The position numbers and the translations under genes were made by a program. 64,000 nucleotides of DNA, taken from assembly GCA_000002435.2 (NCBI GenBank), contig CM018790.1. The stretch is one strand, 5' to 3'. The notes beneath the pieces are model-generated. The model had not been told where the DNA came from. It saw only the letters and a program-made list of their open reading frames with translations, and did no database searches. The first letter of the stretch is position 1, and every line of letters starts with the position of its first letter. Origin of the DNA: Giardia intestinalis. Its lineage: Eukaryota. Positions 10,007-54,281 of the stretch are shown in pieces.

Positions 10007-10008
10007 GT

Positions 10009-11118: not shown

Positions 11119-11131
11119 TGAATTTTTCAGG

Positions 11132-12040: not shown

Positions 12041-12060
12041 CGGACCGACCTCGTGCAAAT

Positions 12061-36148: not shown

Positions 36149-36464
36149 GCGAATTAAATGTTACCGCAGGCACAGGGGAACACGAATGAGATAAGCCTCA
36201 GAGCTCCAGAAGGCGGCCGTAACATGGTCCTAGCTAAGCCTGACTTCAGTAATGCGCCGCAGACTGACGTGAAAAACCGTATAAGGTGTTTCCTAGATCG
36301 TGCTCGTGCTCTTCCAGAGTGTGCACCCAACGCTTCGGAGCCTATTGTGTTGGACAGTAACAGTGATTATTCGGGCGGTGAGCATGATGGGTCCCTTGGA
36401 GTGATCATGGATGTAATAGAAATAGGTCCCGCAGAATCACGGGAGAGGATTGAAGGCGGAGAAG

Positions 36465-39400
36465 CTACATGAGCCCAAAGCCTTCGCAGCACTCGATGGC
36501 GCAGAGAAGCCTGTTCATGAGTGTTTCCTTTGAGCTGTAAGAAGGCAGACAAAGTATGTTAAAACAGGTATGGGCACCAGGCAATCGAGAGTCATCATCT
36601 CCATTTGGAATTATTTTAAGTCCTATGTTCTGCACGCCGCCAGCTGGCACCCTGTCGGAGCCGGTGATGAAGCGAAGGAGCCGCCGCTGCTGCTCTTGAG
36701 TCAGCTCTGCAACAATCCTCCAGAAGTTCTTTATATTAGGATGAGAGCTAGAATATGGGTTCTCGTAAGCTGTGAACGGCTCTAGAAGAGAGAAGTTCAG
36801 GTCTACTTCTCCGGTCAATGCCAGGTCCAGGTCAGACGCTGTGAACATGGCTAACGAGCGTGCCTTAGCCATACTAAGGAAGCCCGATCGGATGAATTCA
36901 AATATCTTTTTATTATATATCGTTGCAATTTGTTTGAGACGAATAAATAATGGTAAGGTTCGCAGATTGACCGGCAAAAGCTCTATATCATAAGGGGCTG
37001 TCAAGATATGGTGTCTATCTTTGACCAGCTCCTTAAGCTGCCACAGGATAGAGTTGGGAGGAAAACTATTAGAACAGAGAAAATCGCCGAAGTGTGAGAT
37101 TGTACGAACGCTGACAGTCCGGTTCATGGATACCAGTTCTTCGCTGACGATTTCTGTTAAGATGGCTCCGAGACCGACAAAAGTGAGAATAGGGTCACTA
37201 GACTCTTGTAAATTGACAGTCAACTGTGAGTCTTCGTTGTGAGCGTGTTTCCAGAGATTAGTGAGCGAGAAATACAGCTCCTCATCAACATCGTGCAAAT
37301 CCTCTCGTGTAATTACTGTGTAAGAGTGCCCTAGTAAAAGCTTGAAGAAGATAGGAGGAAATATTGAGGAAACGGTAGCGCCACTCACAAGCGAGATCCC
37401 CAACATGGCCCCAAGCTGGCAAAAGAGATTACGTAGATCATAGAGATAGCGTTCCTGAGTTGGTGACAGTGCATACTTCTCCGTAGTAAGAAAGTATGGG
37501 TCGTGGTTGGTACAATCTCTGATGCGCTGCCAATTAATATAATAGTATTGTGTCTCTGAATTAAACGTGAAATAGCCCTTGTGGTCAGTAATGAATGCTG
37601 GGAGCAAGTCATTGAATAGCTCTCGAGACGGGCCGCCAAAGTCTACGGCCGCCTCTCCCGAGAACTGAACTCTGATGGGTCTTCTAAGCAGAAGCCGGTG
37701 GACCGGGGAGAGCCACTCGTAAGATAGTTCTTCAGCTGCAAAGGACATGAAATACGCCAGGAAGTCTCCTGCAAGGGTCTTCCTCTCAGCGTTGATGCAG
37801 AGGAACGGGGATTGCCTCGAGCAGCGAATCATATACCCCAGTTCATACAACAAGATATTCAGCTTCGTCTGAGGATTCAGTAGAAACGGATATGAGCAGA
37901 AGGTGAAGAGTTTGGAAATAGCATGCTTATTTGTTTCCACTTCGCCGACTTTACCTACTATATTTTGATCAGCGTGTCTCGGTATGGCCAAGTGCAGCAT
38001 GTCTAGCATTCTTTCGTGGTTAGAATTGTAGATAGATGCAACAGTATCCGTAGTTGCGGTATTGCGAGGTACACTGATAATCGATCCTTCCACCAGACGA
38101 AAGGAACTTGTTTTGCGCTGAACAGGAGCGCTCGGCTTACGTAGCTTGTAGTAGCATCTAGGGCCTAAATATTGCTGCAGACGGGAAATCTCATATCCCA
38201 ACAGCTGGTCTAGAAGAGCTTCATCTAGGTCGAGGCTCGCAGTGACTATGTCCTCGTTGACATCCTGCAACGCTGTTCTTAACTCTTGAGGTATCAAGCT
38301 TTCTAATTGCAAATAAGCTTTGCTGGCCCTCAAAAAGTAGTTGTCTGGGTCGAACAATATTGCAAGGCATTGAGCATCGATTCTCCAATCGTAGGACGGT
38401 GATGATAGGAACTTATTGTGGAAGAGATCATTTGGAATAATTGGAACCATGTCCAGGCGCTGCACATCATCAGTAGCTCCTGCTAAGAATATTGTTTGCT
38501 GCAAGTTAGGTGGTAGAAGAAAAGATAGTGCGTCTGCTATAGATCTGAGATTACCATCGTTTAGGCACTGATGCTGTTGAGATATCCGTTCATAGATTTG
38601 TGGAGAGAGTTGGTTGTAGTTCAAGAGGCTCTTCAGTTGATTAGCTATTTCAGAATTAGCCAGTTGTGGAGTGGAATAACTGATTTCGAACAGCACCTGC
38701 GGTGCGATAAATGGAAACGTATAGCTTGTGAAGTTGTTGGACACGTAGAGTAACCTAGAAAGCTCACAAAGAGAACTCAGTGTGTGGTTAAAGTCCAGGA
38801 TGTCCACGAGAGTAAGCCTGTTGACATCATACGTATACTTTGACTGAGAATTCTCAGACCAAAATATCGGATCGTTAATCGGATAAACGATGCAGTGCTC
38901 CGCTCCAATTATTCTAGTGAACTGCCTAGGCTGGTCAAAACTATACACGTGGGCATTCCTGATAGGAGCACTGGGCTTTTGTTGAAGAATTCTTTCTAAG
39001 GTATTATTAATTGCAGCATTAGATAGGCGAACTAATGTGGTCAGTATGTGTACTGAAGTGTCTAGAGGAAGCGTGTTAAGAAAGGCACGCATCTTAATGC
39101 AAAGACGTAGACGTATGCCTGTATTTTCTTGCAGCGCTAAAAGGACGCTAGCTATTGAGTCTAAAAGGTGTGAACTAAGATTGAAGTAGCGTTCTGTCGA
39201 GAAGAGAAGCAGAAGAAGCATAAAAACATGCGCATCGGAACAGAAAAGAGACGGCTTGACGGCAATTGTTGCGAGAGCAGATTTGAAAAGGTCACCAAGC
39301 TTATTCATGAAGGCCAGTATGGGGAGCGGATCCTCACACTTATCATACTGCAAAAGAATTATCTCTTGAAAGAGTGTATAATTAAGATAGGCGTCGTGGA

Positions 39401-39941
39401 ACGTGGCGCAATTGTCCAGCAAAAAGTGCACGACTCCATCAGGACTGCCGCATCCGTGACACAGAGAAGTAACCAGATTAGCTAGCGCATCAAGGCTAAA
39501 AAACCTTCCCAGCACTTGCTTGTTATATGTCAAGAGCTTAGGCATATATTGCTCTAGAAATGCCCTATTAGAAGAGGACGGGTCCTGGAAGTTAACATGC
39601 CAAATAAGATGATTGAGCGGCCTGGCTGAATAGACGGTTGCAGAGAAGATGTCTGGATCGTCAAGATTGCGGACAACATGCATGACTCCTCTTTGCCACA
39701 TAAGCAGAATATGGCGGATAGACGGCTTGCATATGATGGAAGAACCGTGCGACCCAAGAAGCTCCTTCGCCAGATGCACTGTATCTTGAGGTGTCCACCC
39801 TTCTCCTCTGTGTCCACCATAGCTAAATCCAGAGGATGAAGCGCAATAGGAGTTGCTGCACTCTGCACTGCCACAGCCCTTCAGCAGCTGGACAGACAGG
39901 ATCGCCACCTCCATCGACGTAGGGGTGTGCTTGGCTTTCAT
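36465..39941 (-). CDS. HECT-domain E3 ubiquitin-protein ligase
   Basis: C-terminal HECT domain: ...VDFGGPSRELFNDLL... ending LPGAHTCFNILCLPSYSSKETLMNRLLCAIECCEGFGLM, with the catalytic Cys in the 'HTCFN' context. The long N-terminal region has no recognised domains. Confidence 0.8.
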   Translation of the reverse strand: MKAKHTPTSMEVAILSVQLLKGCGSAECSNSYCASSSGFSYGGHRGEGWTPQDTVHLAKELLGSHGSSIICKPSIRHILLMWQRGVMHVVRNLDDPDIFSATVYSARPLNHLIWHVNFQDPSSSNRAFLEQYMPKLLTYNKQVLGRFFSLDALANLVTSLCHGCGSPDGVVHFLLDNCATFHDAYLNYTLFQEIILLQYDKCEDPLPILAFMNKLGDLFKSALATIAVKPSLFCSDAHVFMLLLLLFSTERYFNLSSHLLDSIASVLLALQENTGIRLRLCIKMRAFLNTLPLDTSVHILTTLVRLSNAAINNTLERILQQKPSAPIRNAHVYSFDQPRQFTRIIGAEHCIVYPINDPIFWSENSQSKYTYDVNRLTLVDILDFNHTLSSLCELSRLLYVSNNFTSYTFPFIAPQVLFEISYSTPQLANSEIANQLKSLLNYNQLSPQIYERISQQHQCLNDGNLRSIADALSFLLPPNLQQTIFLAGATDDVQRLDMVPIIPNDLFHNKFLSSPSYDWRIDAQCLAILFDPDNYFLRASKAYLQLESLIPQELRTALQDVNEDIVTASLDLDEALLDQLLGYEISRLQQYLGPRCYYKLRKPSAPVQRKTSSFRLVEGSIISVPRNTATTDTVASIYNSNHERMLDMLHLAIPRHADQNIVGKVGEVETNKHAISKLFTFCSYPFLLNPQTKLNILLYELGYMIRCSRQSPFLCINAERKTLAGDFLAYFMSFAAEELSYEWLSPVHRLLLRRPIRVQFSGEAAVDFGGPSRELFNDLLPAFITDHKGYFTFNSETQYYYINWQRIRDCTNHDPYFLTTEKYALSPTQERYLYDLRNLFCQLGAMLGISLVSGATVSSIFPPIFFKLLLGHSYTVITREDLHDVDEELYFSLTNLWKHAHNEDSQLTVNLQESSDPILTFVGLGAILTEIVSEELVSMNRTVSVRTISHFGDFLCSNSFPPNSILWQLKELVKDRHHILTAPYDIELLPVNLRTLPLFIRLKQIATIYNKKIFEFIRSGFLSMAKARSLAMFTASDLDLALTGEVDLNFSLLEPFTAYENPYSSSHPNIKNFWRIVAELTQEQQRRLLRFITGSDRVPAGGVQNIGLKIIPNGDDDSRLPGAHTCFNILCLPSYSSKETLMNRLLCAIECCEGFGLM

Positions 39942-40033
39942 GCGCAGATTATTTTTTGAAATTGCTCGTGATCTATTACATAGTTACTGCGGATTGCTCG
40001 GGAGTACAAAAGATTTAAACTGCCAGAAAGTGT

Positions 40034-42298
40034 TTACGTTACATCATGTTCCTTCTGCTCAAGAAATCCATCAAGTAGAATGAGCATAGGTTTGAACACG
40101 TACTCAGACTCTTTCTTTAGAGACGCTAGCTCATTATTCTGAAGAGGCTTGGCTGAGTACAGTGCATCTAGAAAGACAGCCATCAAAACCAAAAGAGGCA
40201 CAAGCGCCCAGATACACACCATGGTTAGAGTGTTAGTTGCTAGCCGCTGCAAGCCCAGCACTCCTATCTCATATAAAAGGACACAGATTGCCATCTCCAA
40301 AGCGCTGCCATCAAACCGTCCACCCTCAAAGATCCTGTGCCGTTCTAGATGGTGTACGTGACAGCGTGCATACAGAAAATCGGCACCAAAGAGCTGTGCG
40401 GCAGAGGCCATCATAAAGCAGAGCAGAATGGCCAGCGTGATCATAAGAATGCGAAGAAGAGTAAGAAACGCGTTTTTGCGCTTAATCCGCCGCACTGCCC
40501 GGATATTATATTCCAGCCGCCTTAGAATGCTAACGATCACTGCGTGGCAATCCCTGAGAATACGTTCGTTGTCAACAAAAATGGATTGCTCAAGGGACCA
40601 ACAGAGCTCATCGGTAGATGCTAAGAGCTCACCGATTCGGCTGGTAGAGGCACAACTTTGGTGTAAGCCGTTTCCAAGACCAACCTCTGAGCTTGCTGGG
40701 CCCTGAGAAATGATAGAGTGAGCATCATAAGTATTTGGGTTTACGACCCGGAGCATGGTGCCGCATTGGCTAATGAGCTTTCCGGCCATTGCGTTAACGA
40801 TTGCTTGTGAAGCAGCAAGGGTCTTAACTACATTTGACTGCTGCAGCGAATCAGCTAGTGTATAGTTCTGCTGCTGAGAGGGTGCCACTGACGAAGAAAG
40901 GAACTTATCCTGCTTGTCTGCAGATAAGGTCAAAGTAGAGATGCCCAAATGTGTTGGCTCCTGCGAGAGCTGTGGCAGTGCACCTGTTTCTACTTCGCTA
41001 GCTCCATACTGTTGCGGTCTGTTGCTTAGAGTAGCACTCAATTTAGTGACTTCAAGAACTATGTTTGACGTGTCGACAAGCGCTCTTGTTTGCTCATTAA
41101 GACATCTTATAGTATCGCATATATCTTGTTTTAGCCTCGTCGTTTTAGCCTGCTGGTTTGCCATTTTTGCATTGCCATAATGGGGGATACAGACTAGATT
41201 CATTTTGAAACGTCTGTATGGGGAGAGCAATATGAGTGACGAGGCGTACTCCTGAATGGCGTCAATACACGATTGTTTATCTGTAAGACGATCACACTTA
41301 GTAATTAGAATAGTTGTTTTTCCAAAAAGCTCATTTGATGAACTGATGTAGTGTAGTAGCCTTCCATTTTCCACAGAAAAGCCTTCGGTTTTTGTATCTA
41401 TACCACAGCTTGTTGTAAAAAGGATCTTATCAACTTGATGAAAGAGCGCCTTGATTGTGTTTTCAAACACTCGAGTTTCTGCCTTAGAAAAAAGCGAGCT
41501 CGGCTTGGCTTGTTTGCCTCGCTTGGACAGGTTGCTCAGAGAGCTGAGAATTCCTTTTGAAGTCGACGACTCTATCACGTAGCGGTAGAAAAATGGTACT
41601 TCGATGAAAATAAAGGGACACGTAGGCCCCATTAACTGGTCAGATGCTCCATGAAGTATGTTGTTACTCTGTGGTAAATGTGAGACAGACTTTTCTAACT
41701 TATCTATCGAATTATAGAGGGTAGCAGAATTAGACGAGACATCTTTATATCTAGAAGCCGAAGTAGATGAAGAATCACGTCCCCTTGGCAGCTGCTTAGT
41801 GCCCTCAGCAGTCGACTTAGTAGAGTAGTACATGGATTTCCCGGTGGGGGAGAGGTTCGCGTTGTGAAACCCACTTTGTAATTGGCTCTGGTCTGTTGAA
41901 AGCACCGATCCAGGAGTCTGCTTACTATATGAATTAAAAGCGCTGCAACGAATATGCGAGCCTGGGAATCCGTTTTCACGAAAGCAAGCATGGATGGATG
42001 GCAGTGTGTCTGCAAGACTGTCTGTAAAATAGGCAACATCGTTGACGCAAGGCACGTATATATTGATGCACATTCCCTCTGAGCGAAGCCTTGATCCGGT
42101 GATGTGACTTATAAGCGACGATTTTCCGCTGTAGTCCTCGCCAAGAACCAAAATCACTGGTCGTGGATTGGGAGCCTTAAAGGGGGTTGTAATGCGAAGT
42201 CTTTGACCAGCTGAGATTATGTGATGTACATATAGGTCTGAGATGGCTGCTCGTGTTTGCAAAGCCACATCTAAGCCTTGATCTGTATTAGAGATCAT
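40034..42298 (-). CDS. putative P-loop GTPase (dynamin/EHD/Sey1-like G domain) with C-terminal transmembrane hairpin
   Basis: P-loop PVILVLGEDYSGKSSLISHITG (compare EHD 'LVGQYSTGKTT' and Sey1 'GSQSTGKSTLLN'). Candidate G4 'ITKCDRL'. Two hydrophobic helices near the C-terminus (FLTLLRILMITLAILLCFMMASAAQLF, CIWALVPLLVLMAVFLDALY). Family assignment is tentative. Confidence 0.45.
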   Translation of the reverse strand: MISNTDQGLDVALQTRAAISDLYVHHIISAGQRLRITTPFKAPNPRPVILVLGEDYSGKSSLISHITGSRLRSEGMCINIYVPCVNDVAYFTDSLADTLPSIHACFRENGFPGSHIRCSAFNSYSKQTPGSVLSTDQSQLQSGFHNANLSPTGKSMYYSTKSTAEGTKQLPRGRDSSSTSASRYKDVSSNSATLYNSIDKLEKSVSHLPQSNNILHGASDQLMGPTCPFIFIEVPFFYRYVIESSTSKGILSSLSNLSKRGKQAKPSSLFSKAETRVFENTIKALFHQVDKILFTTSCGIDTKTEGFSVENGRLLHYISSSNELFGKTTILITKCDRLTDKQSCIDAIQEYASSLILLSPYRRFKMNLVCIPHYGNAKMANQQAKTTRLKQDICDTIRCLNEQTRALVDTSNIVLEVTKLSATLSNRPQQYGASEVETGALPQLSQEPTHLGISTLTLSADKQDKFLSSSVAPSQQQNYTLADSLQQSNVVKTLAASQAIVNAMAGKLISQCGTMLRVVNPNTYDAHSIISQGPASSEVGLGNGLHQSCASTSRIGELLASTDELCWSLEQSIFVDNERILRDCHAVIVSILRRLEYNIRAVRRIKRKNAFLTLLRILMITLAILLCFMMASAAQLFGADFLYARCHVHHLERHRIFEGGRFDGSALEMAICVLLYEIGVLGLQRLATNTLTMVCIWALVPLLVLMAVFLDALYSAKPLQNNELASLKKESEYVFKPMLILLDGFLEQKEHDVT

Positions 42299-42372
42299 CT
42301 AGCTTTTATTTCTCATTCACTGGTTAATTTCGAGCTAAGTTCCACCCGTGCAGCGGACCAGCCCTTCCCGCG

Positions 42373-43997
42373 CTTTGGGCCCGGGCGGGCACGCTCTGGC
42401 CTGCAGCGCCGCGACCTTCCAGGGCGTCTCCGGGGCCCGGCGAGGCACACCCGCCGCCGCGGGCTGTGCCGGCCGGCCACAGGCGGCTGCTGTTCGCTTC
42501 CTCGCGACCGCTTGCCACCCAGGGTCCTGCCTGTCGCTGAGGGTCCTCGGATCAGGCCCTGTCTCCGGCCAGCCGATCGAGCCGCTACCGGATCACCAGG
42601 AAGAGCAGACCCACCCATTCTGCGGCCGACACACTACCACTCTCGGAAGCGCTACGCACATAGAGAGTCTACAGCGCACTCAGCCTGACAGCTGTGATGA
42701 GCCAATACTCGACAACGCAGCATAGACAAGGGCACCGTCACGCATAGACGCCTCCACATAGTTTGCTTTGGTTCATTACGGCAAGCTTGCCAGCTGCTGT
42801 CCGACTAAATTACTCAAAGAGAACGGCTGCGGTGGACAACATTCTTGCTCATTGAATTTGAGATCCGATGATTCGGATGCCATCTAGTTCTGGTGGAGAA
42901 AGAGATCTCCATGAGTCCCTGCTGCAGGAATCACCAGTTCAGCTCTTGCACTACTGTTTCAGGGACACTCCGTCCCCTTTGCTTACTCCCCTTGGGCGCT
43001 AGAACTTGGGCACTGCCTATGTCTTGTTACATGGGTCGATGGCGCCCCCAACTTCCGTCGCAATGTCTCGTAGGGACCACCGACGTTAGTAGAGGCGTAG
43101 CTCAGATGGCGAGAGGCTGGGGCCTAACGATTAACATTGCTAAGCGTAAGAGCATCCAGAAGGTATGAAAAGTTTTCTTCCTGGGAACCCAGTCTCGAAA
43201 GAGCGGCTATCTGCAGCCCTCAGGGCGATCGCGAGTACATCAAAGCATCTGAAGCTGGTAATTGATACGCCATATGACTTCTACGAATCCTTCAACGGAC
43301 TGGTCAGGGTCTCTAGCTGAGATACTTGTTTCGGACCTGAAGAAGCCCATTGCGTTTTTGGCTATACAGGACAGCGGCAGCCTGGGGGTCCACCTACTGG
43401 GCGTCTACTACAGCAGCTGGCGGTGCCTGACATCATCGAGTAGATGGGTGCCGGTTGTAGAGAGAGACGGCCTAACGACGAACCGGTCCTGATCGCTTCT
43501 GATGCTTTGGATGACGCCTCGACAGACCGAAGCATCACCCCAAGTGTGCTGTGCAGATGGACCAGCCCACACGTCACTGAGCCAGACACACTGCACAGGA
43601 TGGGCGCCGATGCGGTCTCGTGCTGGGTGACGGAGCACCTCTGCGACCCATGAACCGAGGACTGGACCTCTCCCCTGATACCAGCGCATGGGAGTACTCC
43701 ATCGACATCCACGAATGCGTACCACAACCTCAAGATAGAGGCGCATGGGGAGCGCGCCCTCCCGGTCATACTCGGAACCGATGATCGCTTCATGGGGAGA
43801 CGAAGAGGCACCCGAGGAACGGGGTAGACACCGGGGTCGTGGCGTGCGATCTTTGTCGTAGAGCACCAAGACCTTGAAGTACATGGCCAGAGTCAACTGC
43901 TCTGAGGCCAGATCGCCGTGGATGATGCAGACCCGAGACAACGGATGCTCACTAGACATCAGACGAGAATTGACCCCGACGGGCCAGAGAGAAGGGA
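42373..43997. repeat. left arm of a ~1.6-kb inverted repeat (partner 50146-51770)
   Basis: Track ORF pairs are identical and mirror-imaged: 42893-43168(+) = 50975-51250(-), 43262-43492(+) = 50651-50881(-), and 42348-42725(+) ≈ 51418-51768(-). Paired coordinates sum to a constant (~94143). The outer ~350 bp are ~75% GC. Identity decays toward the inner end. Confidence 0.85.
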
Positions 43998-44523
43998 GGA
44001 ATCCTAGAGGCACCGCAAGAAACAGCAGGGACTCTTAAAAGAGACGGGGCATAGGAGTTCTTCCGCCGGGATTCGAGAACACCCGACTCTCGGATTTCTG
44101 ATCTCAGCTAATGTATGAGTGAGAGACTTGCCTAGAGTGGTGGTGGCTCGCATGAGAGACCACTCAGATAGCAAATGAGAGTAAATTAGGGGACCTTATT
44201 GAAAAAGAAACGGTGACCCGAGCTTCACCCATCGTGAAACAAGACCAAGGAGAAGCGCCATGGGTAGAGCAGAGAGTCTGCGAGAAGGCCTGAACCCCGA
44301 AAGGACCGATGTACGCATTCGGTCTGAGCATGCACCCATGAAACGGTAGAGAAATGTACCGGGCCCTGGATGTATCACTGGAGAGGACCCTCTTGTTATG
44401 TTATCAATGACCAACAGTCGTCTCTGAACTGGTCAGAGCTTGAGCGAGGATCACACGCAAGATCTCTGGACAATCCTCAGATAGCCCCAGCAGCATAGTG
44501 TAATAAGCTACATACAACAATGC

Positions 44524-44530
44524 GTTTACT
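44524..44530 (-). promoter_or_regulatory. Giardia polyadenylation signal AGTAAAC, 12 nt downstream of the VSP stop codon
   Basis: Minus-strand read after the stop: ...TGC CGC GGG AAG GCG TAG atgtacttaggtAGTAAACgcatt. This matches the AGTRAAY consensus of Giardia mRNA 3' ends. Confidence 0.6.
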
Positions 44531-44542
44531 ACCTAAGTACAT

Positions 44543-47245
44543 CTACGCCTTCCCGCGGCAGAGGAACCACCAACACAAGAAGCCCACAAGACCACCTACA
44601 ACAACGATCACAGCAACAGAGATGCCCGCGATCGCGCCAGTGCTGAGCCCGCTCTTGTTGACGCTTCCGCCGTTGTCAGTGCCATCCGTCTTGACGTAGC
44701 AGATGACAGAACCACTATTACCAGTTGGAGGATCGCAGCTTGCGCAGTTAGCGACACCCTGGATGCTACCGCTTGTCTCTGTACACAGCTTGCATGCTTT
44801 ACTGGCGTCCAAGTAACGGCCAGGTGGACAGGCGCTGCACTTATCGGGTTGATTGGCCACGGTGCATGTGGCACAAGTGGAATCGCATAATGGACACATG
44901 TTCGAGACAGCTGTCAAGCCATTCGCACATGTTTGGCATTTTCCATCCCCAGTGGGCGTTGTGCAGATGCTCTTCCCGGGGAGCCTGTCAGTCTTGTAGC
45001 ATCCGCCCTCCTGGATGAAGTATCCGGCGGCGCAGACCGTGCAAGCACCGTTAGCGGCAGTGGTGCAGAACAGAGTCCTGGCCGCATTGCTCGTGCAGAC
45101 GCCATTGAGCGGCACGTTGCTCCCCTTGCACTTCGAGCAGTACTTGGTACCTCCAATTGTTAGGCCGCACGTCTCGCACTCCGGGCCTTCCACGCATTGC
45201 TCCACGCACGTGCCGCCCTCATTAAGCTTGCTTTCGTCGGCGTACCTCAGCATCTTCCCGGCGGGACAGGCCGTGCACTTGGAAGCGCCGGCCCCGCTGC
45301 ACTCCGCACAGGAGGGGTCGCAGGGCGCGCACGTTTGTCCGGATAGATACGTTCCGACAGGGCAGGCATCTAAGCATGCCTTCTTCGTCGGGGTCAGATG
45401 CTTGCCTGGTTCACACGCCTCGCAAGTCTGCTTGTCCGAGGAGCACGTCTGGCAGTTCTCGATCGGGCAGTCGGCCGGCGCTGGGTTGCACGCCCTGTTA
45501 TCCCCGCTGGCCACGAATCCCGGCTTGCACGCCTCGCACGTCGCCTTGTCCGAGGAGCACGTCTGGCAGTTCTCGATCGGGCAGTCGGCCGGCGCTGGGT
45601 TGCACGCCCTGTTATCCCCGCTGGCCACGAATCCCGGCTTGCACGCCTCGCACGTCGCCTTGTCCGAGGAGCACGTCTGGCAGTTCTCGATCGGGCAGTC
45701 GGCCGGCGCTGGGTTGCACGCCCTGTTATCCCCGCTGGCCACGAATCCCGGCTTGCACGCCTCGCACGTCGCCTTGTCCGAGGAGCACGTCTGGCAGTTC
45801 TCGATCGGGCAGTCGGCCGGCGCTGGGTTGCACGCCCTGTTATCCCCGCTGGCCACGAATCCCGGCTTGCACGCCTCGCACGTCGCCTTGTCCGAGGAGC
45901 ACGTCTGGCAGTTCTCGATCGGGCAGTCGGCCGGCGCTGGGTTGCACGCCCTGTTATCCCCGCTGGCCACGAATCCCGGCTTGCACGCCTCGCACGTCGC
46001 CTTGTCCGAGGAGCACGTCTGGCAGTTCTCGATCGGGCAGTCGGCCGGCGCTGGGTTGCACGCCCTGTTATCCCCGCTGGCCACGAATCCCGGCTTGCAC
46101 GCCTCGCACGTCGCCTTGTCCGAGGAGCACGTCTGGCAGTTCTCGATCGGGCAGTCGGCCGGCGCTGGGTTGCACGCCCTGTTATCCCCGCTGGCCACGA
46201 ATCCCGGCTTGCACGCCTCGCACGTCGCCTTGTCCGAGGAGCACGTCTGGCAGTTCTCGATCGGGCAGTCGGCCGGCGCTGGGTTGCACGCCCTGTTATC
46301 CCCGCTGGCCACGAATCCCGGCTTGCACGCCTCGCACGTCGCCTTGTCCGAGGAGCACGTCTGGCAGTTCTCGATCGGGCAGTCGGCCGGCGCTGGGTTG
46401 CACGCCCTGTTATCCCCGCTGGCCACGAATCCCGGCTTGCACGCCTCGCACGTCGCCTTGTCCGAGGAGCACGTCTGGCAGTTCTCGATCGGGCAGTCGG
46501 CCGGCGCTGGGTTGCACGCCCTGTTATCCCCGCTGGCCACGAATCCCGGCTTGCACGCCTCGCACGTCGCCTTGTCCGAGGAGCACGTCTGGCAGTTCTC
46601 GATCGGGCAGTCGGCCGGCGCTGGGTTGCACGCCCTGTTATCCCCGCTGGCCACGAATCCCGGCTTGCACGCCTCGCACGTCGCCTTGTCCGAGGAGCAC
46701 GTCTGGCAGTTCTCGATCGGGCAGTCGGCCGGCGCTGGGTTGCACGCCCTGTTATCCCCGCTGGCCACGAATCCCGGCTTGCACGCCTCGCACGTCGCCT
46801 TGTCCGAGGAGCACGTCTGGCAGTTCTCGATCGGGCAGTCGGCCGGCGCTGGGTTGCACGCCCTGTTATCCCCGCTGGCCACGAATCCCGGCTTGCACGC
46901 CTCGCACGTCGCCTTGTCCGAGGAGCACGTCTGGCAGTTCTCGATCGGGCAGTCGGCCGGCGCTGGGTTGCACGCCCTGTTATCCCCGCTGGCCACGAAT
47001 CCCGGCTTGCACGCCTCGCACGTCGCCTTGTCCGAGGAGCACGTCTGGCAGTTCTCGATCGGGCAGTCGGCCGGCGCTGGGTTGCACGCCCTGTTATCCC
47101 CGCTGGCCACGAATCCCGGCTTGCACGCCTCGCACGTCGCCTTGTCCGAGGAGCACGTCTGGCAGTTCTCGATCGGGCAGTCGGTCGATACTGATGTACG
47201 GTGAGCCTGTGTCACTGTAAAAACTAGGAGAAATCCTACCAACAT
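44543..47245 (-). CDS. variant-specific surface protein (VSP) with ~15 tandem 38-aa repeats
   Basis: N-terminal signal peptide MLVGFLLVFTVTQA. Abundant CXXC motifs. Repeat unit CPIENCQTCSSDKATCEACKPGFVASGDNRACNPAPAD iterated about 15 times. C-terminal TM helix followed by the invariant VSP tail CRGKA*. Confidence 0.9.
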   Translation of the reverse strand: MLVGFLLVFTVTQAHRTSVSTDCPIENCQTCSSDKATCEACKPGFVASGDNRACNPAPADCPIENCQTCSSDKATCEACKPGFVASGDNRACNPAPADCPIENCQTCSSDKATCEACKPGFVASGDNRACNPAPADCPIENCQTCSSDKATCEACKPGFVASGDNRACNPAPADCPIENCQTCSSDKATCEACKPGFVASGDNRACNPAPADCPIENCQTCSSDKATCEACKPGFVASGDNRACNPAPADCPIENCQTCSSDKATCEACKPGFVASGDNRACNPAPADCPIENCQTCSSDKATCEACKPGFVASGDNRACNPAPADCPIENCQTCSSDKATCEACKPGFVASGDNRACNPAPADCPIENCQTCSSDKATCEACKPGFVASGDNRACNPAPADCPIENCQTCSSDKATCEACKPGFVASGDNRACNPAPADCPIENCQTCSSDKATCEACKPGFVASGDNRACNPAPADCPIENCQTCSSDKATCEACKPGFVASGDNRACNPAPADCPIENCQTCSSDKATCEACKPGFVASGDNRACNPAPADCPIENCQTCSSDKATCEACKPGFVASGDNRACNPAPADCPIENCQTCSSDKQTCEACEPGKHLTPTKKACLDACPVGTYLSGQTCAPCDPSCAECSGAGASKCTACPAGKMLRYADESKLNEGGTCVEQCVEGPECETCGLTIGGTKYCSKCKGSNVPLNGVCTSNAARTLFCTTAANGACTVCAAGYFIQEGGCYKTDRLPGKSICTTPTGDGKCQTCANGLTAVSNMCPLCDSTCATCTVANQPDKCSACPPGRYLDASKACKLCTETSGSIQGVANCASCDPPTGNSGSVICYVKTDGTDNGGSVNKSGLSTGAIAGISVAVIVVVGGLVGFLCWWFLCRGKA
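45420..47200. repeat. perfect 114-bp tandem repeat array (~15.5 copies) inside the VSP coding sequence
   Basis: The motif 'cagttctcgatcgggcagtcgg' recurs at 45453, 45567, 45681 ... 47163, exactly 114 nt apart (15 intervals). Copies appear identical at nucleotide level. This produces the long periodic spurious ORFs on the opposite strand (45015-47204, 45376-47220, 45398-47194). Confidence 0.9.
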
Positions 47246-47878
47246 TAGCCGGGTTAGTATGCCACTGCTCTTCTGTCAGGCCGGTGTATTGGCCGCGAGC
47301 AGTGAGAGACAGCCGCTCTTGCTCTCTCGATCAGTTGGACTGAAGAAGGATAAGATAGGAGCACGCCCACCGGAGGCCGGCTGATAGTGCAGTTCCCCCT
47401 GACTTCGATAGGAACAGGACCAGTGATGACTAGACTCAGACCGCACCTCTCTTGTGGAATGATTGTTCGGGGCGCACTCCTGTACATTGCTGTCACTGTA
47501 TCACTGGGCCCGCCTGCAAGTGCGCTCAGAGATCCCACGGGTAAGCTGCGCCCACTTCTCGACCGTCCGGAGACGATGGCTAGTTGTGGATAACATACTA
47601 AGAGCTCCTCTCCATCGATGCATCCAGAGCTCAGTGTGGTCCCAGTCGGCGTGCCCTGTCGAGGGTGCTCCATGTCGGCCTCCAGGATCCGGCCTGCTCA
47701 GGGCCATACAAGCCGTTAGTATGCCTCTCCTTGGCCTGCCATCGACAGCTCGCACTGGCCGCCCTGCTCGGGTAGTAGCCAAGGTCACTCCAAAGGGTGG
47801 CTCCGGATTGCAGTTAAGATTAGCGATGGCTGTTGGCTCCACTCCCCGTTCCAACTGCCGCGGAGGGCGCCCTGGGAG

Positions 47879-50016
47879 ATGCTAGTAACAGTGCAGTTAG
47901 CGGCTTTGCAGAGCCGATGGGCGCTGGTGGCATCCCCGTGCTCAGCGGGGGCCTTCAGTGTTATCTACTCTCCCAAGGGATGCCCCTACCTCGCCGTGAG
48001 AGAGATCCGGCTCGACGGTCTGGATCAGCACGGTGTGGATGCTAAAGCGTGGGCTGGTCGCCCTTCTTAACATCTTTCACCTGGGAGTCCTCAAGCACTA
48101 TCAAGTGATTGAAGACGAGGGCCTCATCTACGTCGTCACGGACCGGCACGACAAGACCCTTGAGCGCCTCCTCACCGAGCACAAACGAAGGAAGATCCCC
48201 GTCCCTATCGCTGTGATCCTCTCTGTCATGAAGCAGGTCGCTGCCGCCCTCGCCTACCTCCACGGCCTCAGCGGAGTGGGTGCCGACGGTCGCCCCTACA
48301 AGGGCCTCGTCCACCGCGACCTCAAGCTTGCGAACGTCCTCGTCAGCGCAGATGGTGAACACTTCATCATCGCCGACTTCGGCCTCTGTAAGGACGCCCT
48401 GAGATGCGGGAGCACCATTGCAGGCACGGCAGTATACATGGCCCCCGAGATTCTCCTCCGTAATGAGACCAGCCATGCTTCCGACGTGTGGAGCCTCGGG
48501 GTCATCATTTATGAATTAGTAACTCTGAGGAGACCGGACTTCTTGGGGGGCAAGGAGCCAGCAGAGGTCTTCGTCGACGGGTGGAGGCCGGACCTGAGCG
48601 GTGTCACTGATGGCTTCATAAAGAGTGTTCTGGAGAGGATATTCGTGCTGGAACCAGAGGAAAGACTGACGGCCAGGGAGCTGCACGAGACGCTCACTGC
48701 GGCTGACATCCCAGTTAGTGAGCTGAGGGGCAGTGCGTGATGCTGAGGTACAAGTGCGGATCCTTGGAGGCTGCGCTGAATGGCGCTAACGCCAGGATCG
48801 CGCTGCTGGAAGAGGAGGTTAAGACTAAGTCTACTAAGATTGACGCACTCGAAGAGCAAGGTAAGGAGCACCTAGCCATGATTAAGGCACTGGAGAGTAG
48901 GCTTGCACAGTTCGGTGACAGGATGAACACGACTGACCCTCAGTCCAGCCTCCTTTTGCTGCCCAGGCTGATGCGTGCCGCGCATACGAATAGCATGGAA
49001 ACCGTCTGGATGCTGCTTGAAGAAGGACTCGGCGTTGGCTAGCGTGACGAGCAGGGGCACGTCAGTCCCGTCGAGTTGCTTGTTGGGGAGGAGAGGGGCC
49101 TCCAGGACAGGAACGGCTGGACCCCCTGATGATCACCACAGAGGAGGGCTATGCAAGAGCTGCCTCCCTTCTGGTCCCATATGAGAAGGACCGGATCGGC
49201 AGCGAAGGCAAGACGGCCTTGGTGATTGCGGCAGAGGCAGGACATGGAACTGTGGTGGAGGCCATCGACCCAACCGATGAGAATGGCGTCACGGCGCTCA
49301 TGCGAGCTGTTAATAGAAACTACGTGGGGCCTGTGAAGGCAGTCATACTTAGCCAGAGAAGGAGGAAAACATACAAAGAGGTCATAGCAAGCGGATGGTA
49401 CATGCGCACAGGAACAGCTCTGATGATGGCTGCGGCACATGGATACGCAGAAATAGTAGAACTGCTAGTGGAACACGAAAAGGGGAGAAAGTAGGCGGTT
49501 GGGCCGCTCTCATATTCGCGGCACGGTGCGACCGTTCCAATGACCCCCTGGTGGACTATATTGGGCGCGTTGAGCTTTTGATGGAGTATGAGAGCAATAT
49601 CTCAGGGTGGACGGAGCTCATGTATGCAGTAGCACGAGGGCAGAAGGGAGTGTAGAGCTGCTCAAGCAGGAGACTGGGATACAGAATAACGATCATCAGA
49701 CTGTCCTCACGTGGACGGTGTGCAATGATCACCCAGAGTGTGTCAGGCCCCTGCTGAAGGACGAAGGCTGCATGCAAACGACCAAGGGGGGACCGCCCTT
49801 ATGAACGCAGCATATAGCAACACCGTGGAATGTGCAAGACTTCCTAAAGAAAACGAGAAGGAGCTGAAGACAATTTCTAGCTGCCATGGTCACTCGCCCG
49901 GTACCACTGCCCTCAATATCGCTAAGAAGAAGGATCGCAAAGAGATAGTAGACATCCTCCCAAACGAGATCTACTCTGCTTCATCAAGGTCGGCTTGCCA
50001 GCTCCTGTCCGAGTAA
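47879..50016 (+). pseudogene. NEK-type kinase / coiled-coil / ankyrin-repeat gene disrupted by multiple frameshifts (pseudogene)
   Basis: Kinase N-lobe fragment (GAFSVIYSPKGCPYLAVREIRL, 47879-48070, frame 2) overlaps out of frame with the C-lobe (HRDLKLANVLVSADGEHFIIADFGLCKD...YMAPEIL...DVWSLGVIIYEL, 48033-48740, frame 0). Next comes a coiled coil (48737-49042, frame 2). Ankyrin-repeat pieces follow in frames 1, 0, 2 and 1 (49129-49494, 49395-49655, 49607-49804, 49738-50016; e.g. GKTALVIAAEAGHGTVVEAI, GTALMMAAAHGYAEIVELLVEH, GGTALMNAAYSNTVECARL, TALNIAKKKDRKEIVDIL). At least 6 frame changes in ~2.1 kb. The VAIK lysine is replaced (LAVRE). Confidence 0.6.
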
Positions 50017-50145
50017 ATCCGTCCAGGATCCGGAGTCCGGATGCCGCCCACTCTGGAGAAGAGCCTTGTGCATCCCGCCTAGGAGCCATTGGGTGCTCCA
50101 CTATATGCTTCGGGGCGTCCCTTCTCTCTGGCCCGTCGGGGTCAG

Positions 50146-51770
50146 CCATCGCCTGATATCTAGTGAGCACCCGTTGTCCCGGGCCTTGCGTCGGTCACGG
50201 CGATCCTGTCTCAAGAGCAATTGACTCTGGCCATGTACTCTGGAGTAGCTTTGTGGTGCTGATGCTCCATGACGAAGATCGCGCCCCACGACCCCGGGTG
50301 TCGACTCCCGTTCCTCGGGGTGCCTCTTCATCTTCTCGTGGAGGGCACCATCTGTTCCATTATCAAGGATGCGCTCCCCGTGCGCCTCTGTCTTGGAGTC
50401 ATAGTACGCATTCGTGGATGCCAGCGGAGCACTCCCATGCGGTGGTGTCGGGGGAGAAGTATGGCCCTCCTATTCATGGATCGAAGGGCGCTCTTGCAGG
50501 CGGTCCGTCACCCAGCACGAGACCGCATCGGCGCCCATCCTGTGCAGTGCGTCTGGCTCAGTGACGTGTGGGCTGGTCCATCTGCACCGCAAAGCACGCT
50601 TGGGGGAATGATTCGGTCTGTCGAGGCGTCATCCAAAGCATCAGAAGCGATCAGGACCGGTTCGTCGTTAGGCCGTCTCTCTCTACAACCGGCACCCATC
50701 TACTCGATGATGTCAGGCACCGCCAGCTGCTGTAGTAGACGCCCAGTAGGTGGACCCCCAGGCTGCCGCTGTCCTGTATAGCCAAAAACGCAATGGGCTT
50801 CTTCAGGTCCGAAACAAGTATCTCAGCTAGAGACCCTGACCAGTCCGTTGAAGGATTCGTAGAAGTCATATGGCGTATCAATTACCAGCTTCAGATGCTT
50901 TGATGTACTCGCGATCGCCCTGAGGGCTGCAGATAGCCGCTCTTTCGAGACTGGGTTCCCAGGAAGAAAACTTTTCATACCTTCTGGATGCTCTTACGCT
51001 TAGCAATGTTAATCGTTAGGCCCCAGCCTCTCGCCATCTGAGCTACGCCTCTACTAACGTCGGTGGTCCCTACGAGACATTGCGACGGAAGTTGGGGGCG
51101 CCATCGACCCATGTAACAAGACATAGGCAGTGCCCAAGTTCTAGCGCCCAAGGGGAGTAAGCAAAGGGGACGGAGTGTCCCTGAAACAGTAGTGCAAGAG
51201 CTGAACTGGTGATTCCTGCAGCAGGGACTCATGGAGATCTCTTTCTCCACCAGAACTAGATGGCATCCGAATCATCGGATCTCAAATTCAATGAGCAAGA
51301 ATGTTGTCCACCGCAGCCGTTCTCTTTGAGTAATTTAGTCGGACAGCAGCTGGCAAGCTTGCCGTAATGAACCAAAGCAAACTATGTGGAGGCGTCTATG
51401 CGTGACGGTGCCCTTGTCTATGCTGCGTTGTCGAGTATTGGCTCATCACAGCTGTCAGGCTGAGTGCGCTGTAGACTCTCTATGTGCGTAGCGCTTCCGA
51501 GAGTGGTAGTGTGTCGGCCGCAGAATGGGTGGGTCTGCTCTTCCTGGTGATCCGGTAGCGGCTCGATCGGCTGGCCGGAGACAGGGCCTGATCCGAGGAC
51601 CCTCAGCGACAGGCAGGACCCTGGGTGGCAAGCGGTCGCGAGGAAGCGAACAGCAGCCGCCTGTGGCCGGCCGGCACAGCCCGCGGCGGCGGGTGTGCCT
51701 CGCCGGGCCCCGGAGACGCCCTGGAAGGTCGCGGCGCTGCAGGCCAGAGCGTGCCCGCCCGGGCCCAAAG
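50146..51770. repeat. right arm of the ~1.6-kb inverted repeat (partner 42373-43997)
   Basis: Reverse complement of the left arm (see the left-arm entry). Inner boundary: both arms share '...gaccccgacgggccagagagaaggga' and then diverge. Outer boundary: shared 'gctttgggcccgggcgggc'. Confidence 0.85.
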
Positions 51771-51863
51771 CACAGATGATGGTTCATTTCATCTATTTAC
51801 TAGAAGGCAACTAGCCGAATAGTCTGATAAGTAGCCTCTTCTTATGCATGTTAACTGAATAAG

Positions 51864-54281
51864 TCATATAACTGGGATATAACAGCATCCAATAATAACC
51901 CAGACAGCCGCAATGGTTTCTGCATATCCAAAGACAGAAACGTGCAGTCCTATACGCAGTTTATCCCCATGTGCCTCAACTATACTACGACTTTTATCGT
52001 TTGAAAGAAGCGTCTCTACAATAGGTGGAGCATAGAATCTTAGGCTCCCCATGACCTGCAACGGATAAACTATCAGTGTTTCACGAGAAGAAACATAATT
52101 TTTGAGCGCTACCTTCAAAGTCTCATTGCCTAACTGGCCGATAGTTCCACCCATGAGGCGTGTCTGTTCCCAGGATGCTACTGTGGGCGCCAATATCATA
52201 GAAAGCTGTTCAGATCTGGGTGTTGTCAGTCCAAGTGTTTGCCTCCGTGCTTCAATAAGCCTCCATATATCTGCTGTTAAATAACTGGACAGTGTAGCGG
52301 CCAAGGAGGGGCCAAACGGTTTTAGTATATTCTGGTTTTGAAGCAAACGTGGAAGACGGGTAGAAGTCACTAGATAATCATCGTCATCCATGTTATAGTG
52401 ATAGACATAGCTATTATAGACGCGTTCTATCATGGACTGATTGAAAGCTTTCCAAAATAAGGGCCTGGATATATCTAGAGATATGCCATGTATAAGTTGT
52501 TTTTCAGGTATGTATTGTAGTCTATTTGTACTTTGAATATTAACAAAAAGCATGGTTTCATTGAAAATGCAGTCTATTGTCTCATACGGAAAATGAATAA
52601 CAGTTCCAGCAGAATCAGAGTGTTTATCTATCTTGTATTGACCTTCTGTTGGCAACGAGTGCAGCTCTATCATACCTCCATGATCCGATAACAAGCAGTC
52701 CCAGAATTGAATCACCTGTGCACAGAGTGTGATAACGAACGCAGAGCGGACACTCCTATTTCCAGACACATCCGATTTTAGCCCTGGAAGAGCGCATGTG
52801 CCCAGAGCAACGAATGCCGGTATCTGATATCCTCTCAGCATCGAGCACAAGAGAACTGCCTTGTCAAACGGTGTACCAGCACCGACAGATAGCGTGGTGA
52901 TAACTCGAGACCAGACTAGCTCGTTGTTTCCTGATAGTCCAGCGGTGGCTGGAGTTGATTGGCGTCCAGGTGCTGGCATAAGTTGGATAAAGCGCATGCA
53001 ATAGCTAGCCGTTGGAAGGTACGAGCTTGTAAAGGGAGTGATAAGAGTGGAAATAGGGACCACCATTCCATCATCCCGAAGAGCATGGAGCTGAACAAAA
53101 CGCTTGTCTAGTCCAACCGAACTGGGCTGCGAGCCAAGATAGTCTCTCATAAATACGCTTGCGGTCCTATCATATTCTGCAAGTGCTCTGGAGACTGATC
53201 TTTTTGAGGTTGTTAATATGTCTCTAAGGGAGCGGAAGGAGGCTTCTTCAGAGACATCTGCACTGGTCAGAAGGGGCGTGAAAGTGATTGAAACGTTAAG
53301 AGTACCTAGCCGTATTTTTTCGGTTGGAGTGTTGGGTCCTGGTGCTTGAGAATAAGGGTACATGGGAACACTAACTGCCCCAGCCAGCAGAGAATTGGCC
53401 TTGGTCAGCTCAGTGAAGAACTCCACAAAGCCAACTCGTCCATGTGCATGAAGATACTGCATTCCTGAATAGCTGTGGAACACCGCAAGAAAGGTAAGGT
53501 CAGTTACTTTGAGATCTGAAATTGCTCTGAAAGAAGTCAGCGGAGTGGAGGATATACAGAATCGAATCTTTGAAAACGCTAACGGTGCAAGCCCTATAGT
53601 AGCATCACTTCTTTCACACTTGATTGGCGGACAGACATGCCGCAAATTTCCAAGAGCTATTGTGAGGGTAATCACGCCTTCCTCACTGACGCCAGATTGC
53701 CCACCAAGATTGTTACTACACGGAGGAGCAAGCTCACCCGAGGTGATCTGAACCTCTAGATGTTGTTCTACAAGAGTTCTAGACTCTCTAGCAGCGTGAA
53801 GCGCTGTAAGCATTGAGACGGAATCTCTAACCACTTCACTCATAGCACGTGTTGCCTGACGCTCTGTACTATTTAAATCATCGTGTGTATTCATAGACAA
53901 TACATTAGGCTGTGTGCCCCCCTGGACAGACTCCAAATGGCGGCGAGCTTGCTCTCTTCTTTCCATACGTTCCTCTGCAGACATTGATATGCAATCTGTT
54001 GGCTCTGCAGTGGCCCCAGAGCACTTCGACCTGTGAATAGCATATGCCTCCTTCACTGTTTGCTTATCAAAGGCCTGGTCAAAGTATCTTTCTGCCAGTG
54101 AGTGTACTAAGTTGGACTTTTCCAGGTATACTAAGAGACGCTTTTCTACGTCCCGTGGGTTCATATCTCTATCTATCTTTAGCTCTGGGTCCTTGGACTC
54201 ACTGAGTTCCTGGAAAATGCTCTGCAGCTGCTCTTTTGTAAGCTCTCTTAGAACGAACGCCTTAATGCTCTGGGAGTCCAT
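51864..54281 (-). CDS. hypothetical protein; C-terminal region resembles the inactive transglutaminase-like fold of CEP76/CC2D2A-type ciliary proteins (tentative)
   Basis: 805-aa uninterrupted ORF. The segment ...TPFDKAVLLCSMLRGYQIPAFVALGTCALPG... resembles the TGL-domain core 'A.LLcslL.g.gi.A.v.lG' of CEP76/CC2D2A. Otherwise no motifs. Confidence 0.5.
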   Translation of the reverse strand: MDSQSIKAFVLRELTKEQLQSIFQELSESKDPELKIDRDMNPRDVEKRLLVYLEKSNLVHSLAERYFDQAFDKQTVKEAYAIHRSKCSGATAEPTDCISMSAEERMERREQARRHLESVQGGTQPNVLSMNTHDDLNSTERQATRAMSEVVRDSVSMLTALHAARESRTLVEQHLEVQITSGELAPPCSNNLGGQSGVSEEGVITLTIALGNLRHVCPPIKCERSDATIGLAPLAFSKIRFCISSTPLTSFRAISDLKVTDLTFLAVFHSYSGMQYLHAHGRVGFVEFFTELTKANSLLAGAVSVPMYPYSQAPGPNTPTEKIRLGTLNVSITFTPLLTSADVSEEASFRSLRDILTTSKRSVSRALAEYDRTASVFMRDYLGSQPSSVGLDKRFVQLHALRDDGMVVPISTLITPFTSSYLPTASYCMRFIQLMPAPGRQSTPATAGLSGNNELVWSRVITTLSVGAGTPFDKAVLLCSMLRGYQIPAFVALGTCALPGLKSDVSGNRSVRSAFVITLCAQVIQFWDCLLSDHGGMIELHSLPTEGQYKIDKHSDSAGTVIHFPYETIDCIFNETMLFVNIQSTNRLQYIPEKQLIHGISLDISRPLFWKAFNQSMIERVYNSYVYHYNMDDDDYLVTSTRLPRLLQNQNILKPFGPSLAATLSSYLTADIWRLIEARRQTLGLTTPRSEQLSMILAPTVASWEQTRLMGGTIGQLGNETLKVALKNYVSSRETLIVYPLQVMGSLRFYAPPIVETLLSNDKSRSIVEAHGDKLRIGLHVSVFGYAETIAAVWVIIGCCYIPVI

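Follow-up and report, generated by a model that had tools for sequence, protein, structure and literature searches.

A frame-broken kinase-ankyrin locus beside a VSP gene of Giardia intestinalis WB is very probably a dead copy, catalogued as the Nek-GL4 pseudogene GK140

What is to be made of a locus in which all the parts of a protein kinase gene stand in their proper order, but in changing reading frames? Such a locus occupies 47879-50016 on the plus strand of the 64,000-nucleotide stretch of Giardia intestinalis DNA analysed here (contig CM018790.1 of assembly GCA_000002435.2; hereafter the window), where an earlier sequence-only reading recognised the NEK kinase, coiled-coil and ankyrin portions of a single gene, counted at least six frameshifts, and preferred a genuine pseudogene to local sequencing error. 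Judged by its sequence, the locus is the already catalogued pseudogene GK140 / GL50803_104063 of G. intestinalis WB, very probably an unprocessed pseudogene without function that belongs to Nek-GL4, a subfamily specific to Giardia.

The gene content was established with a protein-to-DNA aligner permitting frameshifts, written for this analysis, which placed the intact 769-residue P15 NEK P0002 on 47700-50100 with a score of 1849, against 38-47 in four shuffles of the DNA. The alignment extends from the glycine-loop region to a common C-terminus (...CQLLSE), demands six frame changes (near 48044, 48739, 49125, 49469, 49642 and 49788) and passes one TAG; a MAFFT alignment with the DNA of the DH isolate (assemblage A2) refined the second to fifth of them to about 48731, 49122, 49485 and 49640. 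Three-frame translation of 47800-50100 returned the segments in N-to-C order in coordinate-modulo-3 frames 2, 0, 2, 1, 0, 2 and 1, just as they had been read from the letters, and the longest open stretch in any frame covers at most 246 of the 712 codons. When the segments are stitched into one protein, Pfam recognises Pkinase (3.8e-30) and Ank_2 (4.8e-48), in that order, while tblastn of Giardia NEKs against the region, proposed as a check by the sequence-only reading, gave E-values down to 1e-177. All 113 top-ranked database matches were Giardia sequences, annotated as NEK, ankyrin-repeat or related proteins or lying on unnamed Giardia-like contigs.

The matches to Giardia NEKs and the architecture of kinase, coiled coil and TALM-type ankyrin repeats place the locus within Nek-GL4, and full-length homology combined with seven frame breaks (the six above and one upstream of them) and one TAG points to an unprocessed pseudogene. 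Two intact Nek-GL4 kinases, P0002 of P15 and the 865-residue P0004 of DH, have the same domain order and 53-56% identity to the stitched sequence; unlike the copy in the window, they are open in a single frame, retain the beta3 lysine and a complete first ankyrin repeat, and are preceded by A+T-rich sequence. P0002 was also considered as a positional orthologue and ruled out, its locus being non-syntenic, with reverse-transcriptase remnants, another NEK, a VSP and a lipase gene as neighbours. The segments and breaks, all on the plus strand, are as follows.

47857-47946 (+): ancestral N-terminal remnant, frame 1 (PTAAEGALGDASNSAVSGFAEPMGAGGIPVLS), from frameshift-aware alignment to the WB paralogue GK145
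47879-48043 (+): segment 1, frame 2, leader with glycine-loop and beta3 region (SAGAFSVIYSPKGCPYLAVREIRLDGLDQHGVDA), from three-frame translation and the P0002 and GK145 alignments
48044-48045 (+): break 1, a 2-nucleotide deletion relative to DH (GCTA--AAGCG against GCCATCAGGC), from the P0002 and DH alignments; 'x' in GK140
48045-48731 (+): segment 2, frame 0, kinase core and C-lobe, Pfam Pkinase 2.5e-31 on a 235-residue open reading frame (ORF)
48731-48739 (+): break 2, a 1-nucleotide deletion in a G-run (GGGG-CAG against GGGGGGTCAG in DH), from the P0002 and DH alignments; 'x' in GK140
48740-49123 (+): segment 3, frame 2, coiled coil and remnant of the first ankyrin repeat, from three-frame translation and the P0002 and DH alignments
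49117-49126 (+): break 3, loss of a whole ankyrin repeat (about 32 residues) and of 1 nucleotide (GGACCCCCTGATG), from the P0002 alignment
49126-49485 (+): segment 4, frame 1, ankyrin repeats, Pfam Ank_2 2.5e-13; the ORF 49129-49494 is XP_001706161.1
49483-49487 (+): break 4, a 1-nucleotide deletion (AAGGG-GAG against AAGGGAGAG in DH), from the DH alignment, the protein alignment being less exact here (near 49469)
49486-49640 (+): segment 5, frame 0, ankyrin repeat (GGWAALIFAARCDRSNDPLVDYIGRVELLMEYESNISGWTELMYAVARG), from three-frame translation and the P0002 alignment
49638-49643 (+): break 5, a 1-nucleotide loss in WB, where DH has its own larger deletion, from the P0002 and DH alignments
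49643-49787 (+): segment 6, frame 2, ankyrin repeat (VELLKQETGIQNNDHQTVLTWTVCNDHPECVRPLLKDEGCMQTTK), from three-frame translation and the P0002 alignment
49783-49790 (+): break 6, the T of GGGGTGGACC lost to give AAGGGGGGACC, from the P0002 alignment; identical in DH, with no gap between WB and DH
49789-50016 (+): segment 7, frame 1, last ankyrin repeat and native C-terminus (...EIYSASSRSACQLLSE), aligning to the end of P0002

Segment 2 carries a GRPYK insertion upstream of the HRD motif, and segment 3 contains the nonsense codon, an in-frame TAG at 49040-49042 where DH has CAG and homologues have Gln, given as '*' in GK140. Relative to P0002, two in-frame losses accompany the shifts: the repeat missing at break 3, and the 11 residues MTALMHAAQQG (the first TALM helix), removed by a 33-nucleotide deletion in segment 3 that is common to DH P0011, GK101, GK102, GK119 and P0037. 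The break-3 junction (about 49122) is the same in DH, again with no WB/DH gap, and the annotated 411-residue ORF of DH ends there. TALM, TALV and AALI repeat starts are seen across segments 4-7 in the P0002 alignment, and the reading closes at TAA 50014-50016, overlapped by an AGTAAA polyadenylation-type signal. Two of the breaks recur among paralogues in the supplements of Manning et al. (2011): the break-1 site is also marked 'x' in GK092, GK123, GK144 and GK148 (GVDAxLKRGL), and the break-2 site is broken in GK104 and GK126 (ELGxGQ), recurrences that could be explained by conversion or by repeated slippage.

The seventh break lies upstream of the other six and became visible against GK145, whose sequence was taken from the same supplement (PMC3218828). 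The remnant at 47857-47946 matches the GK145 N-terminal segment at 25 of 32 residues, after which a 14-residue gap and a 1-nucleotide shift follow; a deletion of about 50 nucleotides near 47945-47947 joins this remnant out of frame to the glycine loop. The count of at least six frameshifts made from the letters thus stands, as six against P0002 and this one more against GK145. The leader from 47879 to about 47945 in frame 2 (MLVTVQLAALQSRWALVASPC) is the out-of-frame reading of the old N-terminus, and the ATG at 47879, a TTG in DH and a Leu codon in WB paralogues, is probably accidental on this sequence comparison. The candidate start MLVTVQ... at 47879 was rejected for these reasons, as an out-of-frame ancestral N-terminus that begins with ATG neither in DH nor in the paralogues; a likelier ancestral start is the frame-1 ATG at 47917-47919. 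The 40 nucleotides upstream of 47879 have an A+T content of only 25%, where two intact NEKs and two neighbouring core genes have 55-68% and the adjacent VSP has 42%, and therefore the short AT-rich initiator of Giardia genes seems to be missing before the pseudogene.

Further upstream, a stretch of the spacer at 47463-47559 on the plus strand (LFGAHSCTLLSLYHWARLQVRSEIPRVSCAHF) is identical at 25 of 32 positions to the 5' ORF extension of GK145, which argues that the 5' flanks of paralogous cassettes are homologous; in both WB and DH, about 300 nucleotides full of stops separate this stretch from the N-terminal remnant.

With seven frame breaks, a nonsense codon, the first ankyrin helix and a whole repeat lost, and no AT-rich initiator before any plausible start, the locus is unable to encode a full-length protein. 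Nor would repair of the frames restore all the residues of an active kinase: the beta3 lysine (K72) is replaced by arginine in LAVREI (47990-48007, Arg codon 47999-48001), where homologues read LAVKEI or LIVKAI, while HRDLKLANV (48312-48338, with HRD at 48312-48320) and DFG (48375-48383) are kept in segment 2, so that D166 and D184 are present and K72 is not. Both the loss of the catalytic lysine and the retention of the two C-lobe motifs had been read correctly from the letters, and even a repaired product is, as far as its sequence goes, one without the beta3 lysine.

The syntenic locus of DH provides the closest comparison. Contig AHGT01000023.1 is collinear with window positions 36287-50510, carries the genes of the window's left flank as well (at about 98-100% identity upstream of the left arm of an inverted repeat described below) and likewise places a VSP head-to-head with the NEK. 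The DH NEK, at 10001-12079 of that locus, is split into ORFs of 411 (ESU37665.1), 160 and 101 residues. It has in common with WB the breaks near 47945, 49122 and 49788, the Lys-to-Arg replacement and both in-frame deletions, the shifts at 49122 and 49788 being needed in DH against P0002 too. Unlike WB, it is free of the breaks at 48044, 48731 and 49485 and of the TAG; a deletion peculiar to DH lies near the 49640 site, and GLG stands in place of DFG. The 411-residue ORF begins at TTG in the out-of-frame leader and carries the Lys-to-Arg replacement.

A second line of evidence comes from existing records. Manning et al. (2011, Genome Biol 12:R66; PMC3218828) count 30 kinase pseudogenes for WB, assign 29 to Nek-GL4, a subfamily that evolves fast, and write of 'rampant gene duplication and pseudogenization'. 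Row G091 of their Additional file 1 gives GL50803_104063 the name GK140 and the class Nek-GL4, calls it 'Pseudogene', describes it as spread over multiple ORFs of GiardiaDB ('N - multiple GiardiaDB') and assigns it 1 coil and 6 ankyrin repeats, and GK140 is present in their GL4 kinase-domain alignment. Its supplementary sequence, curated from GiardiaDB release 2.3, reads, in the part compared, EMLVTVQLAALQSRW...GVDAxLKRGL...SELRxGQCVMLRYK...LGVG*RDEQGHV.... Over the portion from the N-terminus to just past the TAG, the stitched translation of the window is the GK140 sequence, and within that portion both have the frame break after GVDA, the break at ELR/GQCVML and the stop in GVG*RDEQ. The catalogue entry and the present analysis describe the same locus without substantive difference; what is new here is the nucleotide-level position of each lesion, the extra break near 47945, the DH comparison and the inverted-repeat context.

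Exact-sequence look-up of 20 ORFs found five in the protein collection. Three belong to 2007 RefSeq: the 121-residue ORF 49129-49494 (XP_001706161.1, 'hypothetical protein GL50803_104063'), the 71-residue C-terminal ORF (XP_001706160.1, GL50803_27583) and a 144-residue antisense ORF at 48042-48476 on the minus strand (XP_001706162.1, 'hypothetical protein GL50803_104062'). The other two are a 170-residue ORF with a MetaClust record only, in the right arm of the inverted repeat, and the 805-residue gene to the right of the cassette, the only one with Logan records. Because the RefSeq fragments match the ORFs of the window exactly, the older annotation had the same frame boundaries. The antisense ORF is almost certainly spurious, lying opposite the kinase core of the pseudogene.

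These two comparisons bear directly on the possibility that a gene which is really intact only looks broken here, through errors of sequencing or assembly in a region rich in repeats and difficult to polish. Such a view can appeal to Xu et al. (2020), who reported homopolymer frameshifts in the PacBio draft and the need for Illumina correction, to the position of the 48731 break in a G-run and of the 49485 break beside a short one, and to the Logan look-ups, in which no independent short-read contig of the region was found. Against it stand the recurrence of the same breaks and stop in the compared part of GK140, a sequence curated from the Sanger assembly; the 2007 RefSeq ORFs bounded by the same breaks; and the presence of three breaks and both deletions in DH, a different isolate sequenced in a different project with a different technology. 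The out-of-frame leader and the 33-nucleotide deletion recur, moreover, in WB paralogues, the TAG is a substitution and not an indel, and neither the 2-nucleotide deletion at 48044 nor the loss of T at 49788 is a change in homopolymer length. Wholesale error is accordingly very unlikely, and the preference for a genuine pseudogene expressed from the letters is upheld by the GK140 entry, the identical RefSeq fragments and the lesions common to DH.

Could programmed ribosomal frameshifting, splicing or RNA editing nevertheless bring the gene back into a single frame and keep it functional? No support for this was found, beyond the published statement that some GL4 pseudogenes have SAGE tags (PMC3218828). 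Rescue would be needed at seven shifts and a nonsense codon, whole structural elements (the first TALM helix and one ankyrin repeat) are deleted, and there is no conserved start codon or initiator. Six of the shifts are gaps of 1-2 nucleotides and the seventh, at about 47945, is the deletion of about 50 nucleotides; no junction carries inserted sequence, and since homologous residues abut at each one, there is no intron-sized insert. Recoding or splicing, named in the sequence-only reading as what would overturn a pseudogene, is thus left with a negligible probability.

WB and DH were compared by the Nei-Gojobori method, with codons aligned through P0002, for synonymous divergence (dS) and the ratio of nonsynonymous to synonymous divergence (dN/dS, omega), with the following results.

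Pseudogene, whole: dS 0.27, dN/dS 0.48
Pseudogene, kinase part: dS 0.44, dN/dS 0.37
Pseudogene, coiled coil and first ankyrin repeat: dS 0.22, dN/dS 0.54
Pseudogene, C-terminal ankyrin repeats: dS 0.15, dN/dS 0.68
Two flanking genes: dS 0.03, dN/dS 0.18

In dS, the pseudogene is 5-14 times as divergent as the flanking genes, and its DNA identity to DH ranges over 79-92% per 500-column alignment block. Along the collinear region, WB-DH identity is 97-100% up to about 42800, 74-94% in the left arm and the VSP, and 76-92% in the spacer, the pseudogene and the beginning of the right arm. Drift alone since the A1/A2 split should have given a dS near 0.03 and an omega near 1; the excess of dS with omega below 1 therefore points to most WB-DH differences having been imported from other members of the family.

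Identity to the WB paralogues is likewise a mosaic, ranging from 100% down to 71%: the kinase core is identical at 135 of 135 residues to the paralogous pseudogene GK101 / GL50803_137735, with 71-93% in the adjacent segments, and other mosaics are found in GK102, GK119 and DH. GK101, GK102 (137737) and GK119 (119989) have, like the window, the out-of-frame leader (L)LVTVQLAALQSRWALVASPCSAGAFSVIYS and the 11-residue deletion in RDEQG(H/R)(V/I)S, which suggests that the copy was already dead when it multiplied; unlike the window, they are broken at FHPxVLKY and not at GVDAxLKR, keep the beta3 lysine (VKEI) and have Gln in place of the TAG. Taken together, these sequence patterns indicate gene conversion or recombination among already-dead NEK-GL4 paralogues, and not just neutral decay in place. 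The earlier description of the cassette as a zone of relaxed constraint is for this reason only partly right: the gene is decayed, but the adjacent VSP is intact, and relaxed constraint alone was rejected as the cause of the high WB-DH divergence on account of the dS excess at dN/dS 0.37-0.68 and the mosaic identity.

The low omega also enters into the question of whether fragments of the gene are expressed as truncated functional proteins, such as the 235-residue C-lobe ORF at 48033-48740 and the 121-residue ankyrin ORF in WB or the 411-residue ORF in DH. The retention of the last of these in DH, a dN/dS below 1, the non-zero SAGE values of GK140 and the survival in Giardia of catalytically dead NEKs, which make up 71% of its NEKs (PMC3218828), all speak in its favour. 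The ORF boundaries of WB are, however, not conserved in DH or in the paralogues; the 235-residue ORF, whose first codon is GTG or an internal ATG, has no N-lobe and no initiator; the DH ORF starts at TTG within the out-of-frame leader; and, given the mosaic identity and the 5-14-fold dS excess, import of tracts from paralogues accounts for the low omega. Functional fragments are therefore improbable in the extreme, if marginally less so than sequencing error.

The pseudogene does not stand alone. It lies head-to-head, across a 633-bp spacer, with an intact VSP gene, and both are enclosed by a pair of inverted repeats.

44543-47245 (-): intact 900-residue VSP with signal peptide, CRGKA tail and TAATGTT-type initiator
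42372-43997 (no strand assigned): inverted repeat, left arm
50118-51771 (no strand assigned): inverted repeat, right arm, beginning 102 nucleotides past the pseudogene stop

The VSP has an AGTAAA signal, an initiator motif of the type described in PMC2996952, and, at 45414-47184, 15.5 copies of a 114-bp (38-residue) tandem repeat that match at 99%; its exact 900-residue protein was not found in the protein collection, and the VSP at the same site in DH has only 392 residues. The right neighbour of the cassette is an 805-residue ORF at 51864-54281 on the minus strand, identical by exact-protein look-up to XP_001706158.1 / KAE8302296.1 of G. intestinalis WB clone C6, which identifies the DNA of the window as WB. 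Both it and the VSP are open throughout, in agreement with the earlier remark that the neighbouring genes are clean.

The arms, 1.65 kb each, are 93% identical overall across 1660 nucleotides, their outer 1183 nucleotides (42372-43554 against 50589-51771) being 100% complementary, with 96%, 79% and 87% in successive stretches inward, and they fill all the space to the conserved neighbours, from the left start codon at 42298 to the right stop at 51864. A search of the arms and spacer for coding content or known RNAs found no Pfam domain, and Rfam and ARAGORN reported only a distant tRNA-Pro. Logan contigs with the 805-residue gene, represented by two that stand for 20 or more samples, all break off at about 51742, within the right arm and about 120 nucleotides past the stop of that gene, and the DH contig ends inside the right arm as well; these endpoints show a real repeat that short-read assemblies collapse, and the Logan endpoints further imply that the cassette is systematically missing or fragmented in short-read Giardia assemblies. 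From its sequence, the perfect identity of the outer arms suggests ongoing homogenisation between them and a potential for inversion.

The inner 330 bp or so of the arms (43687-44034 and 50118-50439) is 68-73% identical to 8719-9082 and 16395-16772 of the P15 locus L006, where two convergent NEKs in a non-syntenic setting have the copies, as an inverted pair, about 0.5-1 kb upstream. By sequence resemblance, this inner piece looks like a dispersed element tied to NEK and VSP cassettes.

At a larger scale, the cassette sits in a G+C-rich island spanning roughly 42-52 kb (0.53-0.68, against 0.43-0.51 over 13-42 kb and 52-64 kb), which agrees with the published picture of VSP-containing islands. 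A separate second G+C patch, of up to 0.58, lies at 9-13 kb, and a tRNA-Pro (CGG) at 9935-10006 on the plus strand is the sole Rfam or ARAGORN match within the window.

This setting invites the proposal that, within the VSP cassette, the dead NEK serves some non-coding purpose, whether by offering homology for recombination or gene conversion, as a spacer, or as a source of antisense or small RNA that affects the adjacent VSP, any of which would be compatible with a pseudogene. The adjacency of VSP and NEK recurs in DH L003 (AHGT01000023.1), DH L004 and P15 L006, the unit is bounded by inverted repeats, and the kinase-core tract is 100% identical to another pseudogene. On the other side, lineage-specific deletions accumulate in the pseudogene, and the adjacency would be expected anyway, both families being published as clustering in variable, non-syntenic regions; statements to this effect, including that of Xu et al. 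(2020), place VSP, NEK, Protein 21.1 and HCMP genes together at synteny breaks. Such a role is unlikely, though less so than functional fragments.

Somewhat less improbable, but still doubtful, is the proposal that the 9.4-kb unit at 42372-51771, with its VSP, dead Nek-GL4 copy and inverted repeats, constitutes an active recombination module. Were it true, the whole cassette could be inverted or exchanged ectopically by way of its arms, the dead NEK copies could serve as dispersed homology tracts and conversion donors driving VSP-linked and GL4 turnover, and the pseudogene would spread as a hitch-hiker and not merely decay in place.

Under the preferred explanation of a dead Nek-GL4 copy, a plausible history can be outlined. 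An ancestral GL4 gene, head-to-head with a VSP, would have been disabled before the A1/A2 split by lesions that DH has in common with WB, namely the N-terminal deletion and frameshift at about 47945, the Lys-to-Arg replacement, the 33-nucleotide deletion, the repeat deletion and frameshift at 49122, and the frameshift at 49788. The dead copy would then have been duplicated or spread through recombination within WB, its copies continuing to swap patches through gene conversion, as suggested by a core 100% identical to GK101 between flanks at 71-93%. The WB copy would later have gained the 1-2-nucleotide deletions at 48044, 48731, 49485 and 49640 and the change of CAG to TAG at 49040, and may persist not through selection but as a passenger of the intact VSP inside the inverted-repeat-bounded unit.

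Several observations weigh against this explanation. Support for the four indels confined to WB comes from the literature sequence and the RefSeq ORFs, and agreement with the 2007 annotation may not be fully independent evidence; by exact-protein look-up the Logan short-read assemblies carry no ORF of the pseudogene region, and two of the breaks, at 48731 and 49485, fall within or beside the G-runs already described, contexts prone to sequencing error. In the table of Manning et al. (PMC3218828), GK140 has low but non-zero values (2.14 and 7.9) in what are presumed to be SAGE columns, and some transcription may accordingly occur. The WB-DH dN/dS below 1, taken alone, could also be read as residual constraint.

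For the annotation of Giardia genomes, the consequence is that GL50803_104063, GL50803_27583 and the antisense GL50803_104062 do not deserve the status of genes, each being a fragment or artefact of a single pseudogene, and that the 411-residue ESU37665.1 of DH is a pseudogene fragment too. As the divergence of the cassette reflects exchange among paralogues, pseudogenes located there are unusable as neutral clocks. Beyond such annotation hygiene the locus matters little, and it fits the published rapid turnover of Nek-GL4, which leaves pseudogenes in the variable regions that hold VSP genes; what remains mildly interesting is the inverted-repeat-bounded unit of VSP and pseudogene, and the exchange of sequence that appears to continue among copies already dead.

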